From NCBI RefSeq assembly GCF_053078305.1, contig NZ_CP166879.1: a DNA stretch of 64,000 bases. One strand, written 5' to 3'. How positions within the stretch are numbered: position 1 is the first letter of the stretch; every line of letters begins with the position of its first letter. Below are positions 1 through 53,358 of the stretch, in pieces. Made by a program: the position numbers and the translations under genes. Below the pieces are notes generated by a model, which worked only from the letters and a program-made list of their open reading frames with translations, was not told where the DNA came from and did no database searches.

Positions 1-65
1 GTCCATGCACGAACATGAGCGGGTGCACGGCCTTTTCGTCCCATGGGTTGTAATATCATCATGCA

Positions 66-581
66 TCACCCCCTGACTCGCTTTTCGGCAGCATAAAACT
101 CATCAGACAGAATTTCGGTCATTTTCCGTTTTGCGGAATCATCTTCGCACTGAAGGTAAATAACATTGTCAACGCAGAACCACTTAACGGGGCCAAACAG
201 TATTGCCGAGAAGTCAATGCCCAGCCAGAACAACAGCGCATCGGTTCTGGCATACGTGACGGGCGAATATTCACGCCACAGACTGTTCAGTTCATCAGAG
301 GCAACACGCAGGGTTTTAGGTATACGTGATGTGCGCGGCGTGCAGCTCCAGCCATTCGACGCAGTCGGTTTTCTCCATAAGTCGCGATGAAAAGGATATT
401 TGTCATCCATAAAGCGCAGCCCCTTAAAACAAAATCCACTGATACCGGATACAAATACCGGGCGGCACGCAACATTCAGCACAGCCTCAAGGCGTTTTGC
501 CTCATCTTTTACCGTCTGGCAGTCCTGCTGGTATTTTTGCCACGCAGCCAGCGCGGAAGGGTTTGAAGTTTTAAAGAACAT
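66..581 (-). CDS. hypothetical prophage early-region protein (171 aa)
   Basis: ORF in early operon downstream of gam; start overlaps upstream stop (TAATG); no family recognised. Confidence 0.5.
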   Translation of the reverse strand: MFFKTSNPSALAAWQKYQQDCQTVKDEAKRLEAVLNVACRPVFVSGISGFCFKGLRFMDDKYPFHRDLWRKPTASNGWSCTPRTSRIPKTLRVASDELNSLWREYSPVTYARTDALLFWLGIDFSAILFGPVKWFCVDNVIYLQCEDDSAKRKMTEILSDEFYAAEKRVRG

Positions 582-1114
582 TACGCCACCTCCGCAGAAA
601 TCGCGGCCGGTGCCGCTGTCCGGTCAACAATCAGGTAACGCAGAACGCGCGAGGTGATATTCCGGCCGCTTAAACCGCAGATAATGACGCCCAGGCGGAT
701 GTCGATATACGCCATCACAAACTGGGGCACGCCTTCTTTCATGGCCTGCTCATCAACTTCAGCCACCACATAAACGGTTTCACAGGTCAGAACGCCCTGA
801 GCAAATTCCCACGCCATCGACGGAATATCATGCCCCTCAATCCACGGCAGGGACTTTCTGAAGCTGCACCACTGAACATCATCAGCCGCACATTCCTGGC
901 TGCATTTGCGACGAACCGGCTGCACCGGGCGGGGACGCGGAATATCATAAAAACCGTTACATTCCGTCAGCACGCCTGCATCAACCGCATCACGCAGAAA
1001 ATAAACCATGGAGGATAGCGGCATATTCATTTTTTCTGCCAGAGAACGACTGGTCAGACGGCCAGAAAAACGCAGCCAGCTTTTAACCCCTTCAAGCACT
1101 TTTGCATCAATCAT
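581..1114 (-). CDS. hypothetical prophage early-region protein (177 aa)
   Basis: ORF co-directional with gam; no family recognised. Confidence 0.5.
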   Translation of the reverse strand: MIDAKVLEGVKSWLRFSGRLTSRSLAEKMNMPLSSMVYFLRDAVDAGVLTECNGFYDIPRPRPVQPVRRKCSQECAADDVQWCSFRKSLPWIEGHDIPSMAWEFAQGVLTCETVYVVAEVDEQAMKEGVPQFVMAYIDIRLGVIICGLSGRNITSRVLRYLIVDRTAAPAAISAEVA

Positions 1115-1259
1115 GATTTATTTCCCCACCACATTATTAATGACGATATAAACGTATTTCATATTTCTTAACCCTTATTTTCTGTTTTCAGGCGCAAGCA
1201 GTCCCCTGACGCAAGCGCCATAATTAAAACGATGTGATATTTAAAGATTTAATGCGGTG

Positions 1260-1790
1260 TTATTTATTCAGTCCGGCGTCCTGTTCAAAAGGCTCGACAT
1301 GAAAACTTTCAGCGCCTTTATTCACCTTAATACCAGCAATCCCTTTCACCGCATCCGGCTCCGCCAGGACAGCTTGCTTATTCACTTCCTCTTTCGTGCG
1401 GATGAAGCGCTCAAGCCCCATACGACGCAGCATTTCAATCACACCTTCCACATCACGACTGACGCTGCATGATGGATTTCCCAGCCGCCATGACACCGTT
1501 CCGGTGGTCAGATTGGCAGTTTTGGTTTCGCCGCCGTTCGTCAGCTCATTGCGGTTGGTTTTACACCAGTCATGAATCCCTTTAAAAAGCACTTTGATTT
1601 CTTTTTTAAGGTTTTCAATCTGCGGCGTATAACGGGCGGTGATTTCTGCCACTTCATCATTCATCGCCGTTTCCAGGCGCAGCGCCTCTCGCTGAATATC
1701 ACCCAGAGTGCGGATATCGCGGCTGACTTCTTCGCGGGTCTGTGGTGCGGCCTCGGCTGCGGCCTTTAATTTTGTAACACGTTTAACCAT
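1260..1790 (-). CDS. gam: Gam-like host-nuclease inhibitor / DNA-end binding protein
   Basis: Translation from internal Met (MVKRVTKLKAAAEA...) resembles phage Mu Gam along its length (LETAMND, ELTNGG, TANL, VSWR, FIRTK, PFEQ motifs). Confidence 0.8.
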   Translation of the reverse strand: MVKRVTKLKAAAEAAPQTREEVSRDIRTLGDIQREALRLETAMNDEVAEITARYTPQIENLKKEIKVLFKGIHDWCKTNRNELTNGGETKTANLTTGTVSWRLGNPSCSVSRDVEGVIEMLRRMGLERFIRTKEEVNKQAVLAEPDAVKGIAGIKVNKGAESFHVEPFEQDAGLNK

Positions 1791-1800
1791 TTTGTTTTCC

Positions 1801-2094
1801 TTATTGCAGTGCGCCTGATGCTTTATGCACACGGTGGCGTTTAATGATGGCATCCGCCCCAAAAGCCTGTACAGATGCCTGAAATTCCGCTGAGAGAAGC
1901 TGAATAATTGCAGGACTGTGATACTGGAGAATACTTGCATAAACGTCACAGAGTGACGTCGGGCTGTTCTCCGTATCACGTTCTGTTTTCACATCCACTC
2001 CAATCTTTTCATGCACTTCAACACAGTCATTGCCTGCCAGCTTTTCGTCATGCGAAACATGCTCAAATTCAAAAATAACGCGTACTTTGCTCAT
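1801..2094 (-). CDS. hypothetical small prophage protein, paralog 1
   Basis: Starts MSKVRVIFEFEHV; N-terminus paralogous to the adjacent upstream ORF; SD-like GGGG before the internal ATG. Confidence 0.5.
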   Translation of the reverse strand: MSKVRVIFEFEHVSHDEKLAGNDCVEVHEKIGVDVKTERDTENSPTSLCDVYASILQYHSPAIIQLLSAEFQASVQAFGADAIIKRHRVHKASGALQ

Positions 2095-2098
2095 GGAA

Positions 2099-2371
2099 TT
2101 ACCCCTGCTGATTAAATTCATTACCGTTAATAACCCCGGAAGCCATACCCCTGTCTTTCATGAATGCACTGGCTTTCATTGCCACAAGCTCTGCGAAGTT
2201 TCTGCTTTCTGCCAGCATAACCACCCCAAAAATCATGGCGGGTCCATTATCTTTCTTCTTTATTCCGGTTGAACGTATATCCAGACTTACCCCTCTGTGC
2301 GTGCTGCCATCAGAGTTTTTGCAGATAACATCTTCCTTGTATTCGAAAATAATGCGTACGACTTTACTCAT
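2099..2371 (-). CDS. hypothetical small prophage protein, paralog 2
   Basis: Starts MSKVVRIIFEYKEDV; AGAGGA SD-like sequence before the internal ATG; paralog of 1801-2094. Confidence 0.5.
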   Translation of the reverse strand: MSKVVRIIFEYKEDVICKNSDGSTHRGVSLDIRSTGIKKKDNGPAMIFGVVMLAESRNFAELVAMKASAFMKDRGMASGVINGNEFNQQG

Positions 2372-2445
2372 CCTCTGGCTCTCGTTTTGTTCGGATAACT
2401 GACCCGGCGTCTGACCTGATGACAGAGCCGAACCATGAAGCAACT

Positions 2446-2703
2446 TCATACTTCCCAGTAAACCGTGCATCCGCTTATGCGGGTGGCTTTCACACGGCGG
2501 CGCAGGCCGTTGGTCTTAACGGTGATTTCAATTTCCTCACCACTCCCCTGAACCTCGCCTACCGGCGGCGTGGTTTTCAGTGCAAAACGTTGCGGATAGC
2601 GCTTACTGCGTTCCAGTACCGCACCGGCAAGCTCGGTCAGGCGACGTGCGCTGTTCAGGGAGTCGAATAAATTCATTTTTTTACCGCTGGATTGCATATT
2701 CAT
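2446..2703 (-). CDS. hypothetical small prophage early protein (85 aa)
   Basis: ORF in early operon between the B-like and gam-like genes. Confidence 0.4.
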   Translation of the reverse strand: MNMQSSGKKMNLFDSLNSARRLTELAGAVLERSKRYPQRFALKTTPPVGEVQGSGEEIEITVKTNGLRRRVKATRISGCTVYWEV

Positions 2704-2715
2704 ATAACACCTCGT

Positions 2716-2943
2716 TTAACTGATTTGTTCAGCACCGATAAAACGGCAAATATTGCTGTAAGTTTCTGTCGCACCTTCGCGATCAAGTCCAACAGATATT
2801 GCCATTCGGGTGCGATCATTAAATTCAAAGAGTAAATCGCCACATTCTTCACTGTCAGACATGGAGACTGCTTTGACGTTATCGAAATTAACCAGGTAAA
2901 AGCGTCCGTAAATATCAGGAATATTAAATACCGCCATAATCAC
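2716..2943 (-). CDS. small early protein, possibly Kil-like (75 aa)
   Basis: Position immediately after the B-like gene and size match Mu kil; sequence identity not confirmed. Confidence 0.35.
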   Translation of the reverse strand: MIMAVFNIPDIYGRFYLVNFDNVKAVSMSDSEECGDLLFEFNDRTRMAISVGLDREGATETYSNICRFIGAEQIS

Positions 2944-3872
2944 ACCTGTGAAAGTAATTCAGGGTTGGTGTAAACCTCTTTAAAGGCCGCATTAATATGT
3001 TTTTCTGTCAGCGCCGCGCCTTCACCGCTGGCGGTGAGCCACGCCTGGTTAAGCGTATGTGTCAGAACGCGTAACGCCCCCGGCTTTTCAGCGATAGCCT
3101 GCATGACGGCCAGCTCGGCCTCACCACTGATCCCCCACGCCCTGGCAATGGCCAGCACATCCGCCTTTTTGGCCTTGCGAAGTTGTTTTGTACGGGCAAG
3201 ACGGCTGAACAGGCGCGATAAATCATCAAAGGCGCGGCGTCCACCTTTAAACAATCCGCGCGGGTTACCAATAAGTACCATCCCGATCCCCGTGGCGTCC
3301 TGAATTGCCCGGAGTTGTTCCAGACCGTCAATACCAAGATGATCTGCTTCGTCAACAATCACCAGTCCACGTGTTCCCGTCAGGCGACGGCGGATGGCGC
3401 GGGATAATGCCCCTTTGTTCGCGCGGGTGTAATCAATCCCCAGCGCATCGGCCAGCTCCAGCAAACACTCCGTGACGCTGGAGTGCGCGGGCGACAGGGT
3501 GATCATCCAGGTGTTCGGTTGCTCCTGACAGTAATTACGGGCCGTGGCCGTTTTACCCACACCCGGTACGCCCACAATGACGTTAATACAGCCCATCAGG
3601 CGAACCGCCTGAAACAGTGCGCGCAGCTCCTGGACTGTCTGCGTTTCAACAAACTGTGGCGGCTCGGGCAGTGCGCTTTGTTTATTCCAGTTCTCATACC
3701 AGGAACGCAGGGAAGCAGCCACAGCAGCGTTATCGCCTTTATATTTTCCCTTACGGAAAGCCGATAATGTGCCGTCGGAAATTCCCGCCTCTCTGGCGAT
3801 GGCATACTGCGTCAGTACGCCGCCATCAATAAGTTCATCAATGGTCTTGATTACATCGTTAATATCAGTCAT
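2940..3872 (-). CDS. MuB-like DNA transposition ATPase
   Basis: 310 aa, Walker A GVPGVGKT, N-terminal HTH-like segment, located after transposase as in Mu. Confidence 0.8.
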   Translation of the reverse strand: MTDINDVIKTIDELIDGGVLTQYAIAREAGISDGTLSAFRKGKYKGDNAAVAASLRSWYENWNKQSALPEPPQFVETQTVQELRALFQAVRLMGCINVIVGVPGVGKTATARNYCQEQPNTWMITLSPAHSSVTECLLELADALGIDYTRANKGALSRAIRRRLTGTRGLVIVDEADHLGIDGLEQLRAIQDATGIGMVLIGNPRGLFKGGRRAFDDLSRLFSRLARTKQLRKAKKADVLAIARAWGISGEAELAVMQAIAEKPGALRVLTHTLNQAWLTASGEGAALTEKHINAAFKEVYTNPELLSQV

Positions 3873-3943
3873 ATTATTAACCTCTCATTTGATACCTTGT
3901 TTAATCAAATAACCTGAGTCGCCGCTCGGGTTATTTTTTTATT

Positions 3944-6034
3944 TCAGGCCAGCGGGTCATTTTCTTTTAATTTCGCTTCCAGCAACTGCAATCCCCGCTG
4001 GAAATTACGCTCGTATTCTTCATCAGGTTCATCGTCAGCGACCGGTTGCTGAACGGTCACCGTATTACCCACAGGGCGGTATATGTTTTCCAGCCAGGGC
4101 TCCTGCGGCTTGTGCTCCAGCACGTTGACAACCTCATCCTCGGCATCACGGATTTTTTCCTCTGCGCGTTTACGCATGCCTTTAAGGCGTTGCTGCTGTT
4201 TGTAGTATTCCGCACTAACCGGGAAGGCTTCGCGTTTATTACCGTCCCATACCGCCTCGCAAATCACGCTGCCATCCAGGCGACGTACGGTAATTCGTTC
4301 GGCATCATGAATGTCATAGCTGATAAGCACCTTACGACCATGCTCGTCACGCAGCTCGGGCGCGTAGTAAATATTATTCAGCCAGCGTATTTCACAGCGT
4401 CTTACAGGGCGTTCCACCATCGGCCGGAACATATCCCGCAGCTCAACATCGGACAGCCATTCAATTTCCGTGTCCTCTTCCGCCAGGCGTTTTTTTCTGA
4501 ACTCCGCCGGGCTGTAATGCTTGCCGTTCGGCTTCACCGGTAATTCATCGTGCGGCCGGTTGTTGTACCACTCAACACCGTCACGAATGGCATCAATCAG
4601 TTCAGACCAGGACGGTAAATCACGCATCGCTGACTGCTGCCGGACGTTCAGCCGTTTGCCCTGTTGCAGGGCAGTAAATGCCGAGCGTAAATCGCGGTTG
4701 GTTTTGCGTAACGTCTCGCGATCTGCACCTTTCCCGAAATAGGTGCGGTATTTACGGGCTATGCGCATCGGTAATGTGCGGTTAAGCCGTTCGATAATGC
4801 CTCGTCCCTGCGGATTACCGGCAATCCCGGTCGGGTGATTAATCCCCAGTCGCGGCAGTATCCCCACAACCTCCTTATCCAGGATGTCGGCGGTTTCCCC
4901 GGAGCCGTTATCCGAGTAATACAGAAACGGTTTGCCGTGATGGCGAATGCCGTGCTGTATGGCACCGGCTACGGCGAAAACATTTTCAGCCAGGTCAAGG
5001 CTCCAGCCCACCACAAAGCGCGTGCCACCGTCGATAACAAAGGTCACTTCCGGTGCAAATGGCCGACCGTGAACCGGGTGTGCGCATTTCAGTTTCATGC
5101 CGTGACCGTCACCAATCCAGACATAATTCACCGGCATTTTTGACCAGTCGCGGCGCGTGAATCCCTCAAGCTGGCGGTATTCACTGCCGGTCACCCGGCC
5201 TTTTTGTTTCACCACTTCCGGCAGTTTCTTCATTGCGCGGCGAATGGTGTCATAAGACGGCATGATATCGAGCATATAAGGCTCATCAGCGTGCCGGTGC
5301 TGCCATTCAGCAACAAAATCCTCGTAAGCCTCGGTCATTGGTCGGCCGTTTGACTGGCGATACTGCGCCAGAAATTCGGGCAGCCAGTTAATATCTTCGG
5401 CTTTTATTTCCTGGCGCTTACCCGGTGCCAGTAAAAGCAGGCGTTCAGCGGCGTTCTGCGCCTTGTTAAAGGCCGCAATCCAGCGTTTCAGCGTGATTTC
5501 ACTTAACGCACGGCTGTTTCCCTTTTTGGCGTTCGCCGTCTCAACCATTGCCACAATGCGCTCGTCCAGCTGCGAACGTGCCAGGTTGTCAACGATAAAC
5601 CGGATAGCCTTCGCACAGCTGAAACCAGGTTGTTGCGCGACTTTCAGAACTTCGCTGACGATCGCGATTCGTGCATCAGCCACCTGGCGCTGGTTTTCAG
5701 TCAGGGCATTAAGGCGTTCGACCATCAGTTGTGGTGATCCGCGATATGCCTCCACCGCATCAACCACGGCAGGCGAGCGTCTGGCCTTTGTCACCACTGG
5801 AGCCGGTGATTCATCGACTTTTTGAGTCATCAGTTGCAGGGCGTAGCGTTCACGTAATGCCTGCTGCGTCACTTCAGGTAAACAGTCGATGCTGTATTCA
5901 GTTGCTTTAGAGCCTGAGCGACGACGGGAACAACAGCTTTTCCCTTGTACGTAACGTTGTAATGCCTGGCGAATACCTTTTGTTGTAGCAGGCATTCCGG
6001 GCGCGCCAATCAGTTCTTTTGCAATGACATACAT
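3944..6034 (-). CDS. MuA-like DDE transposase
   Basis: 696 aa ORF directly downstream of ner-like gene; size and position of Mu A. Confidence 0.8.
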   Translation of the reverse strand: MYVIAKELIGAPGMPATTKGIRQALQRYVQGKSCCSRRRSGSKATEYSIDCLPEVTQQALRERYALQLMTQKVDESPAPVVTKARRSPAVVDAVEAYRGSPQLMVERLNALTENQRQVADARIAIVSEVLKVAQQPGFSCAKAIRFIVDNLARSQLDERIVAMVETANAKKGNSRALSEITLKRWIAAFNKAQNAAERLLLLAPGKRQEIKAEDINWLPEFLAQYRQSNGRPMTEAYEDFVAEWQHRHADEPYMLDIMPSYDTIRRAMKKLPEVVKQKGRVTGSEYRQLEGFTRRDWSKMPVNYVWIGDGHGMKLKCAHPVHGRPFAPEVTFVIDGGTRFVVGWSLDLAENVFAVAGAIQHGIRHHGKPFLYYSDNGSGETADILDKEVVGILPRLGINHPTGIAGNPQGRGIIERLNRTLPMRIARKYRTYFGKGADRETLRKTNRDLRSAFTALQQGKRLNVRQQSAMRDLPSWSELIDAIRDGVEWYNNRPHDELPVKPNGKHYSPAEFRKKRLAEEDTEIEWLSDVELRDMFRPMVERPVRRCEIRWLNNIYYAPELRDEHGRKVLISYDIHDAERITVRRLDGSVICEAVWDGNKREAFPVSAEYYKQQQRLKGMRKRAEEKIRDAEDEVVNVLEHKPQEPWLENIYRPVGNTVTVQQPVADDEPDEEYERNFQRGLQLLEAKLKENDPLA

Positions 6035-6035
6035 A

Positions 6036-6284
6036 TCATGACGCCTTTCTCATATAGCTCTTAACCTGGTATCGACTGGGCCAGATTTCTTCAGGCGATA
6101 CCCCAAGAGCATCAGCAATTATTTGCTGATACGGTCGGCAAGGAGTACGTAATACGCTTTTCAGCGAATCCCTGCTGTAACCAGCCTTTAAAGATAAAGA
6201 GCGCAGTGATAAGCCAGCCATGTGTAAGCGCGCCTTGATGATTTCAGGCGGCCAATCGTGATCTGAAACTTCTCTTCTACTCAT
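6036..6284 (-). CDS. ner: Ner-like DNA-binding regulator
   Basis: 82 aa; C-terminal IIADALGVSPEEIWPSRYQ resembles Mu Ner. Confidence 0.75.
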   Translation of the reverse strand: MSRREVSDHDWPPEIIKARLHMAGLSLRSLSLKAGYSRDSLKSVLRTPCRPYQQIIADALGVSPEEIWPSRYQVKSYMRKAS

Positions 6285-6354
6285 ACTTCCTCTATTCTAA
6301 AAAGTTACCCGCGCGGATATTCGTGCGGATATCTGTACGGGTAAATAATGCATC

Positions 6355-6395
6355 ACTAAAAATACCAAATCAAGGTATTTTTGGTATTTTGGATA
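6355..6395. promoter_or_regulatory. operator/promoter region between divergent ner and c genes
   Basis: Inverted and direct repeats aaaatacc / ggtatttt (x2) in the divergent intergenic region. Confidence 0.4.
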
Positions 6396-6474
6396 ATTTT
6401 TGCTTTTATCCTTATTTTTCAATTGGATAAATAGAAAGAAACCTTTCCTTAGAAAAGCACCAAGAGGTATCTTT

Positions 6475-7005
6475 ATGTCGCAGGGAAAAGAACCTGTTAT
6501 TGAACGTATTGGAATGCTTACAAAGCGCTACCCTTCAAGAAGTGCAGCTGCCAGAGCGTGGGGAATCAATATCAACACATTAAACAGCTATTTCAAGGGA
6601 GGACAAACACAACCAGCCCCCAGAGAAAGTATCCTTATACGAATTTCTGAAAGTGAAGGAGTTAGTCTTGAGTGGCTTAAAGAGGGCAAGGGTGAATCAC
6701 CAAATGATGTTGGTATTTGTGGTAATTTTGGTTGTTCTGGTGATAAGGGAGATCAGCTTACACAGATGCTTTCATTCCTTACGAAAGACGAACGAGAACA
6801 GTTAACCAATCTCCTTGCTCGCAAAGGTGTAGAGACGGTTCTGACACTACTGGATAAAGAAAACCAGGATTTATTACAACTAGAAGGCAGGAAGCGCCTG
6901 GCTGCGTTGATGATTGTAGATATGCCAGACGATTGCGTCAGAGAGATTTTGGAAAAAACCGAGACAAGTAGGCAATCAAATCCGGTAGAATCTAAAGCGG
7001 GTTAG
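6475..7005 (+). CDS. prophage repressor (c-like)
   Basis: Divergent from ner, reads toward the prophage end; HTH-like N-terminus; AGAGG SD before the ATG at 6475. Confidence 0.65.
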   Translation: MSQGKEPVIERIGMLTKRYPSRSAAARAWGININTLNSYFKGGQTQPAPRESILIRISESEGVSLEWLKEGKGESPNDVGICGNFGCSGDKGDQLTQMLSFLTKDEREQLTNLLARKGVETVLTLLDKENQDLLQLEGRKRLAALMIVDMPDDCVREILEKTETSRQSNPVESKAG

Positions 7006-7272
7006 TTTGGCGAGGCTGGCCCGTATGTTAGTTGCCATATAGATTTAATGAAGTTTTAAACGCTTTAAAAAAGTTGAGATCGCAGTATCAAAAGTTTTGC
7101 CGATTTTAGAATAAACGATTAATTATTGCACAATCGGTATCAAATAGACTTTAAGCGCTCATCCAGACATCACCTGTTTTATTTCAGTATCTTACAGGTG
7201 ATTTCACCTCCTTTCACTAAAACCCTCGTTGGTATCAAATGATTCACCTGGTTACACCAGGCACAGAGTAAT

Positions 7273-7626
7273 GTGACCCAAATGATGCGCATGTTTAACT
7301 TTATGAAGAGTGTCGGCGCTACCCCCATCGTTAAAGCCATTGATGTTCCCGGTGAAAAACTGAACTCTCTGGAAGAACTGTTCCAAAAAACGATGGAAGA
7401 ATACGAGCAACGTTCTAGTACGTTGGCACAGTTAGCCGATGAAGCGAAAGAACTGAATGATGATTCAACCGTCAATTTCCTGCGCGATCTGGAAAAAGAA
7501 CAGCAGCATGATGGCCTGTTGCTGCAAACCATTCTTGATGAAGTGCGCAGTGCGAAACTTGCGGGTATGTGCCCAGTGCAGACCGACCAACATGTTCTGA
7601 ATGTCGTGTCGCATCAGCTGCATTGA
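7273..7626 (+). pseudogene. ftnB: ferritin-like protein FtnB, 5'-truncated by prophage insertion
   Basis: 117 aa ORF matches the C-terminal two thirds of FtnB; in-frame stop at 7240-7242 and no ferritin N-terminus upstream. Confidence 0.8.
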
Positions 7627-12012: not shown

Positions 12013-12099
12013 TGGTACCCGGAGCGGGACTTGAACCCGCACAGCGCGAACGCCGAGGGATTTTAAATCCCTTGTGTCTACCGATTCCACCATCCGGGC
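12013..12099 (-). tRNA. leuZ: tRNA-Leu
   Basis: 87 nt; reverse complement matches tRNA-Leu with long variable arm and CCA end. Confidence 0.9.
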
Positions 12100-12111
12100 T
12101 CGGGAAGAAAG

Positions 12112-12185
12112 TGGAGGCGCGTTCCGGAGTCGAACCGGACTAGACGGATTTGCAATCCGCTACATAACCGCTTTGTTAACGCGCC
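12112..12185 (-). tRNA. cysT: tRNA-Cys
   Basis: 74 nt; reverse complement GGCGCGTTAACAAAGCGG...CTCCA. Confidence 0.9.
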
Positions 12186-12238
12186 AAATTCTTCAGGCCT
12201 TTCAGCCAGACATCCGCTGACGCCGATGTCTTTTAAAC

Positions 12239-12314
<76 letters not shown>

Positions 12315-44770: not shown

Positions 44771-44858
44771 AAAATCCCGACCCTGAGGGGGTCGGGATGA
44801 AACTTGCTTAAGCAAGAAGCACTTAAAAAATTCGTTACACCAGGAAATCTGATGTGTT
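44771..44858 (-). ncRNA. dsrA: DsrA small regulatory RNA
   Basis: Reverse complement reads AACACATCAGATTTCCTGGTGTAACGAATTTTTTAAGTGCTTCTTGCTTAAGCAAGTTTCATCCCGACCCCCTCAGGGTCGGGATTT with terminator hairpin. Confidence 0.9.
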
Positions 44859-53267: not shown

Positions 53268-53358
53268 TTTTTATTATTCTGTGTCATGATGCTTCCGTTA
53301 TTAGCCTTTTATCGTCTTGTTTATATTTTTTGGGCCGGCATGATGCCGGCTTTTTTTT
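53268..53358 (+). ncRNA. rseX: putative small RNA (RseX-like position) ending at an intrinsic terminator
   Basis: Strong hairpin gggccggcatgatgccggc plus T8 at 53332-53358 in the AT-rich yedR-yedS spacer; 5' end not determined. Confidence 0.35.

Follow-up and report, generated by a model that had tools for sequence, protein, structure and literature searches.

The window, the whole 64,000-nt stretch of contig NZ_CP166879.1 analysed here, contains the left arm of a Mu-like prophage (positions 1-7256), while the remainder is Escherichia coli chromosome. Two adjacent open reading frames (ORFs) on the minus strand, directly downstream of the prophage gam gene, are the subject of this study (Table 1). 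Comparison with phage genomes by tblastn aligned ORF 581..1114 with positions 6424-6951 of phage Mu (65.5% identity over 100% of the length) and ORF 66..581 with Mu 6954-7460 (51.5% identity over 99% of the length). Full-length protein homologues of both were present in Mu, D108, SfMu, Yersinia Mu-like phages and hundreds of database clusters, and in reciprocal searches neither ORF was closer to another Mu gene than to gp11 or gp12. The Mu record lists Mup11 as gp11, which merges the former E10, E11 and E12, and Mup12 as gp12, the former E13. Both are annotated as hypothetical, come immediately after gam (Mup10) and share the base 6954. These alignments show that the prophage has here its orthologues of Mu gp11 and gp12, which belong to the accessory genes in the 'semi-essential' early region.

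An earlier note, made from the letters of the DNA alone, had placed ORFs of 177 and 171 amino acids on the gam strand, and the ORF table returned exactly these on the minus strand. Its statement that neither resembles a Mu early protein did not survive the comparison with Mu. The pair remains unassigned as to function, as the note had put it, since neither Mu gp11 and gp12 nor the corresponding PHROGs and Pfam families carry one. Likewise, the note had named homology to Mu early proteins of established function as the finding that would speak against it: homology to Mu early proteins was found, but none of these has an assigned function.

Table 1. Positions of the features discussed in the text
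Feature	Position	Strand	Basis
gp11 (Mup11) orthologue, 177 aa, ATG start	581..1114	-	ORF and match to Mu
gp12 (Mup12) orthologue, 171 aa, ATG start	66..581	-	ORF and match to Mu
TAATG stop/start overlap of gp11 and gp12	579..583	-	sequence
GGAGG Shine-Dalgarno motif for gp12, within gp11 codons ...A-E-V-A	589..593	-	sequence
gp11 N-terminal domain, aa 1-57, three-helix, winged-helix-like	944..1114	-	predicted model
gp11 variable linker, aa 58-86, probably disordered	857..943	-	pLDDT <50 at 51-86
Gp11_C domain, aa 90-167	614..847	-	Pfam PF25754
Conserved non-coding element of ~50 nt (TCACATCGTTTTAATTATGGCGC..GCGTCAGGGGACTGC..GCGCCTGAA), just past the gam stop	1187..1237	-	comparison
gam, Mu Gam-like end-protection protein	1260..1790	-	PHROG 491 'Mu Gam-like end protection', E 1e-66
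Five small early ORFs between transposase B and gam	1801-2943	-	ORF table
Transposase B	2940..3872	-	ORF table
Transposase A	3944..6034	-	ORF table
Beginning of the following early gene, truncated at the window edge	1..62	-	ATG 62..60, 3 nt past the gp12 stop

A survey of Mu-like phages yielded 74 loci with enough downstream sequence, 54 with both genes and 20 with gp11 alone. In the window, the gp11 stop codon TAA (583..581) and the gp12 start codon ATG (581..579) have base 581 in common, and the TAATG claimed by the earlier note was read directly from the sequence. A GGAGG motif, a canonical Shine-Dalgarno sequence, is located 7 nt ahead of the gp12 ATG, and the minus-strand junction reads ...GCG GAG GTG GCG TAA TG.... 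All 54 Mu-like loci carrying both genes displayed TAATG or TGATG at this position with a GGAGG-type motif ahead of it, and the junction GGAGG(T/G)GG...T(A/G)ATG was common to the window, Mu and the loci L003 and L009. The conserved gp11 tail '...EVA' is the coding face of the gp12 ribosome-binding site. Scanning positions 1-2400 for promoters and terminators returned hits at chance level and no terminator between gam and gp11. The co-expression deduced in the earlier note from the overlap is thus backed by the embedded GGAGG, the absence of a terminator between gam and gp11 and the conserved junction, and at the level of sequence, co-transcription and translational coupling of gp11 and gp12 are well supported.

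Pairwise Nei-Gojobori comparison with close relatives gave ratios of nonsynonymous to synonymous substitution (dN/dS) of 0.10-0.34 for gp11 and 0.07-0.25 for gp12, showing purifying selection on both coding sequences. Moreover, similarity of the two proteins to their relatives persists past the range in which megablast detects DNA similarity. Because of the full-length homologues, the low dN/dS values and the junction retained at every locus with both genes, gp11 and gp12 are, judged from these comparisons, real genes and no chance ORFs.

Domain organization of gp11 and gp12

The exact gp11 sequence is deposited at NCBI as WP_044192704.1, 'hypothetical protein [Escherichia coli]'. It matched PHROG 1949 over its full length (E 1.2e-99), a group that carries no function. 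The earlier note had proposed a profile search with hidden Markov models (HMMs) of Pfam families of the DUF type, and this search proved productive: PF25754 (Gp11_C, 'Phage Mu Gp11 C-terminal domain') was detected in gp11 with an E value of 3.5e-39 over positions 1-78 of the 78-position model, and gp12 was linked through its homologues to PF26885. Both are Pfam families without assigned function.

Alignment of 30 gp11 homologues that are 57-72% identical, which also served as input for AlphaFold2, revealed a near-invariant N-terminal segment, above all residues 34-57, a linker (approx. 62-82) varying in length as well as in sequence, and a conserved C-terminal domain. The AlphaFold2 model consists of helices 4-17, 22-29 and 33-45, with a predicted local distance difference test score (pLDDT) of 60-75, a disordered region from 51 to 86, and a small beta-rich domain comprising residues 87-168, most of which has a pLDDT of 84-92 with one 10-residue block at 70. 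The match list of a fold search with this model was dominated by winged helices and gave no information on the Gp11_C domain. The earlier note had proposed a winged-helix DNA-binding fold for the N-terminus. The three-helix model and the mostly winged-helix fold matches speak for it, but searches against Pfam, NCBIfam and PDB sequences and with profiles found no sequence-level membership in any helix-turn-helix family. As a prediction, the winged helix is therefore moderately supported.

Residues W91, E93, G94, P98, C111, E112, E119, D138, R140, C146, R159, Y160 and D164 are invariant in divergent members of Gp11_C, a set rich in acidic residues and cysteines. The profile search detected the domain in no genera other than Escherichia, Salmonella, Serratia and Klebsiella, and on these sequence data gp11 is shown to be confined to Mu-like phages of the Enterobacterales. 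Unlike Gp11_C, the N-terminal domain is replaced or degenerate in two lineages.

The exact gp12 sequence occurs at NCBI on at least 1000 contigs, again as 'hypothetical protein [Escherichia coli]', and matched PHROG 2314 over its full length (E 1.3e-81), which carries no function either. All 46 gp12 homologues in the database have PF26885 (Phage_Mu_Gp12) as a precomputed assignment, and clusters with 88-91% identity to the window protein are among them. The family call was made through this annotation: the Pfam library that was searched did not include the PF26885 model and gave no match for the gp12 sequence and noise alone for the gp12 alignment. A HMMER search, run exhaustively on 1.84 billion cluster representatives, yielded no more than 78 relatives, most of them full length and 23-34% identical. 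W69, G121, E156 and I157 are invariant in a 69-sequence alignment and are all present in the window protein. The family motif EILGSE[FY]xxA has the version EILSDEF in the Mu clade. AlphaFold2 predicted a compact alpha/beta protein with a pLDDT of 95.3 and a predicted template modelling score of 0.85, for which a fold search returned no solved structural relative. The isoelectric point (pI) is 8.9 for the window protein with a family median of 7.8, which is near neutral to basic, and this charge rules out gp12 as a DNA mimic.

A cluster at 90% identity in a large protein collection holds gp12 together with the SANT/Myb-like protein encoded by the neighbouring gene. Since BLASTP shows no similarity between the two, this grouping is an artefact, and the names 'SANT/Myb' and 'AsnC' belong to the neighbour and not to gp12. 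Profile-profile comparison and BLASTP also gave no relationship between gp11 and gp12, or between either of them and the SANT/Myb-like neighbour, so that paralogy was rejected. Searches of NCBIfam, PADLOC and PDB sequences with single sequences and alignment profiles contributed nothing usable for either protein, and no PADLOC defence family reached E <= 1 for gp11 or gp12. A match to an engrailed homeodomain fusion (E 0.044) contained no passing stretch and was treated as noise. A literature search for Mu gp11, gp12, Mup11/12, PF25754, PF26885 or their PHROG identifiers found no paper on them; the semi-essential region of Mu has been described as 'largely uncharacterized' (PMC3820752; PMC8705779).

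Distribution of gp11 and gp12 among phages

Scanning IMG/VR with the non-Mu gp12 clade yielded 80 viral loci, at which gp11 was sought within 4 kb of gp12. Not one of the 80 had a gp11 homologue in this range. In 49 of them gp12 was located downstream of a CI-like repressor gene (PHROG 4) on the same strand at a distance of 170-3260 nt, and the interval was filled by variable small ORFs. An RdgC-like gene preceded gp12 directly at eight loci, and a YqaJ/Exo-like nuclease gene followed approx. 3 kb downstream at six. Furthermore, gp12 without gp11 was found in transposable phages of Klebsiella and Pseudomonas, in the early region between the transposition genes and GemA, as well as in lytic Klebsiella Lastavirus and in 83-kb Vibrio phages. 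These occurrences show gp12 to be a gene that, by its sequence distribution, has moved among the early regions of transposable, lambdoid and lytic phages.

The lambdoid prophage L004 gives an indication of how gp12 is controlled outside the Mu lineage. Here, gp12 lies between cI and a gene run ending in the integrase gene. At 4037-4142, the cI gene is followed by a strong intrinsic terminator with a 12-bp stem and then by a 37-nt stretch that is 73% identical to the oR/pRM region and includes a third copy of the cI-cro operator repeat, AATTGCGTA(T/A)T..GCA. The stretch is a clear oL/pL copy. The terminator and the operator copy therefore place gp12 at the head of an early-left operon under repressor control, of which it is the first gene of any size, and it is not transcribed together with cI. 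A rough comparison over many loci points the same way: words of at least 11 nt were shared between the region upstream of cI and the cI-gp12 gap at 20 of 42 loci, compared with 10 of 39 controls.

The converse situation, gp11 without gp12, accounts for the 20 remaining loci of the Mu-like survey. At locus L136, gp11 is followed directly by GemA. At L158, gp11 ends in a tail (..VNNGKQ) similar to the end of Mu gp12, a sign that gp12 was probably deleted in frame. In the divergent Mu-like locus L009, the two genes are still adjacent even though gp12 is only 39% identical and the N-terminus of gp11 is different; the gp11-gp12 arrangement is therefore old within the Mu lineage. Because gp11 is absent from the whole set of non-Mu gp12 loci and gp12 from 20 of the 74 loci with gp11, the two genes are, as far as their distribution can tell, not an obligate pair, and neither needs the other.

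The gam-gp11 boundary and the prophage setting

Just past the gam stop codon lies the conserved non-coding element of Table 1. It is kept in the window, in Mu, in a sister E. coli prophage, in more than 60 Mu-like loci from IMG/VR and in the very divergent L009. Among 66 fetched loci and the window, 30 sequence variants were distinguished, with one copy at each locus examined. A hairpin closed by GGCGC/GCGCC is predicted within the element (z -1.86); it has no U tract. Clear compensatory changes were not detected, and the element had no match in Rfam, nor had window positions 1-1900. Sequence divergence begins right after it. The element may be a protein-binding site, an RNA-processing site or a mosaic boundary. 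An extra gene of approx. 540 nt with no assigned function lies between the element and gp11 in several sister prophages, at 4118-4660 in L169 and about 630-650 nt upstream of gp11 in L093-L104 and others. In the window this gene is missing, and the spacer between gam and gp11 measures 145 nt. The comparison of these sequences identifies the gam-gp11 junction as an insertion point for accessory genes.

The early genes of the prophage are tightly packed on one strand in the order transposase A, transposase B, five small ORFs, gam, gp11, gp12 and a SANT/Myb-like gene. In the prophage of JE86-ST02, the five small ORFs have lengths of 222-294 nt and are all 'hypothetical' in RefSeq; their sizes are unlike those of Mu kil and gp6-gp9. 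In sister prophages, gam is annotated as 'host-nuclease inhibitor Gam family protein'. The window holds the first 20 codons of the SANT/Myb-like gene, whose full-length counterpart in sister prophages (e.g. L003) encodes 183 aa and is annotated as SANT/Myb-like or 'AsnC family'. Beyond gp12, the operon of sister prophages continues with this gene, several small ORFs, GemA, Mor and lysozyme.

The first 8 kb of the window combine the early region of the prophage with adjoining host DNA, and 186 complete E. coli genomes have a place that covers 80% or more of this segment; the prophage is a common one in E. coli. Mu-like phages inserted in Shiga toxin (Stx) phages match the window prophage at 92-95%. 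The left end of the prophage is located at 7256/7257, with the minus-strand sequence TGTAACCAGGTGAATC..., and abuts a truncated plus-strand ORF (7273..7626) that appears to be the C-terminal part of ftnB. A gene annotated as ftnB is present in this neighbourhood, and ftnB seems to be interrupted by the prophage in this strain. A closely similar prophage in UTAK-15 adjoins a truncated ABC-transporter ATP-binding gene beside araF, and the JE86-ST02 prophage adjoins a truncated gene for the citrate lyase alpha subunit. Such differing insertion sites are as expected for random transposition of the Mu type. The host part of the window comprises three tRNA genes and the small RNAs DsrA and rseX (12016-12314, 44772-44858, 53268-53357), which are ordinary E. 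coli features.

Possible roles of gp11 and gp12 and comparison with known systems

We favour the view that gp11 and gp12 are probably two independent accessory proteins of the early lytic phase, gp11 binding nucleic acid and gp12 being directed at the host. Both would be translated from the long early transcript in the first stage of lytic growth, and ribosomes terminating on gp11 would reinitiate on gp12 by way of the TAATG and the embedded GGAGG, which would link their synthesis. They would be independent accessory proteins encoded side by side, neither of them an obligatory part of a joint machine. For gp11, nucleic acid binding by the highly conserved predicted winged helix is most likely, with Gp11_C serving as a putative effector domain or in oligomerisation. 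The most likely partner of gp12 is a host component that is conserved throughout the Proteobacteria, and binding to it would favour lytic development, be it by host takeover, counter-defence or DNA-end metabolism. A conserved host component is suggested because gp12 is present in transposable, lambdoid and virulent phages, always as an early gene. The sites it occupies in early operons would fit a host-directed role: its neighbour in Mu-like phages is Gam, and a minority of non-Mu loci have RdgC-like or Exo-like genes next to it.

One variant of this view gives gp12, on its own or together with gp11, a counter-defence function against a host anti-phage system or nuclease, comparable to Gam, Ral, Abc2 or Ocr. 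We consider this analogy possible but clearly less probable than the broader formulation, which it narrows without contradicting it. The early-operon position of gp12 in phages of three lifestyles, its patchy occurrence and its replacement at a fixed locus, a pattern typical of accessory genes in an arms race, its vicinity to the nuclease inhibitor Gam and its small, stand-alone protein with an orphan fold all argue for counter-defence. On the other hand, gp12 has no homology to any characterised anti-defence protein, is neither acidic nor DNA-mimic-like according to its pI and that of its family, and is under purifying and not diversifying selection among close relatives. Doubtful to a higher degree is the proposal that gp11 and/or gp12 provide the classical 'arm' (amplified replication) function of Mu, which boosts the rate of replicative transposition. 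arm reportedly maps between gam and lig/gem, the interval in which gp11 and gp12 are located, which is a lead for this proposal, and the predicted winged helix of gp11 would suit an accessory role in the transpososome or in replication. However, gp12 is also carried by non-transposing lambdoid and lytic phages, so that its role cannot be one specific to transposition, more than a quarter of the Mu-like phages surveyed (20/74) lack gp12, and Gam itself or other semi-essential genes could explain arm.

Two further explanations appear most unlikely. An obligate two-component system, such as regulator and effector, toxin and antitoxin or chaperone and client, would account for the coupling, for the overlap and embedded Shine-Dalgarno motif kept in 54/54 loci with both genes and for the adjacency retained in the divergent L009. 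Nevertheless, gp11 is found at 0/80 non-Mu gp12 loci, other transposable phages have gp12 without gp11, and 20/74 Mu-like loci have gp11 but no gp12, including the one in which GemA comes right after gp11. Moreover, PADLOC returned no match, the two proteins are unrelated by profile-profile comparison, and start/stop overlaps are the rule across this operon, in which the next gene starts 3 nt past gp12. Slightly less probable still is an exclusion or defence gene of the Rex or Sie type, expressed from the prophage and co-transcribed with the repressor in lambdoid prophages. Genes of the lambda rexAB type sit downstream of cI on the same strand, and this is the position of gp12 at 49/80 loci, where it is at times only 170-460 nt away from the repressor gene. 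In addition, low-level early transcription has been reported in Mu lysogens (PMC3820752). Co-transcription with cI is contradicted by the terminator and operator copy ahead of gp12 in L004, which point to control by the repressor; in Mu-like phages gp12 belongs to the repressed early lytic operon, and it is present in virulent phages and matches no PADLOC family.

A bolder proposal is one that we regard as speculative. gp12 would be the founder of a family of early effectors with a new structure, aimed at the host and common to transposable, lambdoid and virulent proteobacterial phages, and would neutralise a conserved host factor of defence or of DNA-end processing, and gp11 would be a winged-helix partner or regulator of the Mu lineage that was acquired beside gp12.

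As a gene pair, gp11 and gp12 were already known, with their families catalogued and their exact sequences deposited, and in this respect the finding is an ordinary one. What may be new is the separability of the two genes, the wide spread of gp12 as an early gene, whose fold is predicted with confidence and lacks a solved relative, the conserved tail of gp11 doubling as the gp12 ribosome-binding site, and the conserved non-coding element marking the boundary between gam and gp11. Although Mu has served as a model phage for over six decades, much of its semi-essential early region is without assigned function. With its confident orphan fold, its movement independent of gp11 and its presence in early operons of phages with three lifestyles, gp12 is a tractable target. 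Should it prove to act in host takeover or counter-defence, a gap in the Mu map would be closed in part and that class of proteins would gain a new fold.

Among known systems, the predicted N-terminal domain of gp11 would be comparable to DNA/RNA-binding winged helices of the DtxR/MntR/IdeR, MarR, SelB and eS25 types, given a model of moderate confidence. The attached Gp11_C has no relationship with the domains for metal binding or dimerisation in those regulators. The lambdoid accessory genes transcribed from pL (ral, kil, gam, abc) and the gp12 homologues appear analogous in their repressor-controlled early position and their patchy, modular spread. In sequence and fold, ral, kil, gam and abc have no similarity to gp12, and the likeness would be one of mode of action and not of family.

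The closest counterparts are the Mu proteins themselves. Mu gp11 (NP_050615.1), the founder of PF25754, has essentially the same size, the same place right after gam, the 1-nt overlap with gp12 and the upstream GGAGG, and it shares the three-part architecture with the gp11 of the window. About a third of the residues are different, and most of these changes fall within the linker and the C-terminal tail. S22-R23 of the window protein stands in place of the C-G found in 90% of the homologues, and the spacer between gam and gp11 is 98 nt long in Mu, compared with the longer spacer of the window. Mu gp12 (NP_050616.1), the founder of PF26885, agrees with the gp12 of the window in place and overlap. 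It is 176 aa long, five residues more than its counterpart, and is followed by gp13 in Mu, whereas the window lineage has the SANT/Myb-like gene at this position. Mu gp12 and the gp12 of the window have in common that EILSDEF replaces the family consensus EILGSE[FY].
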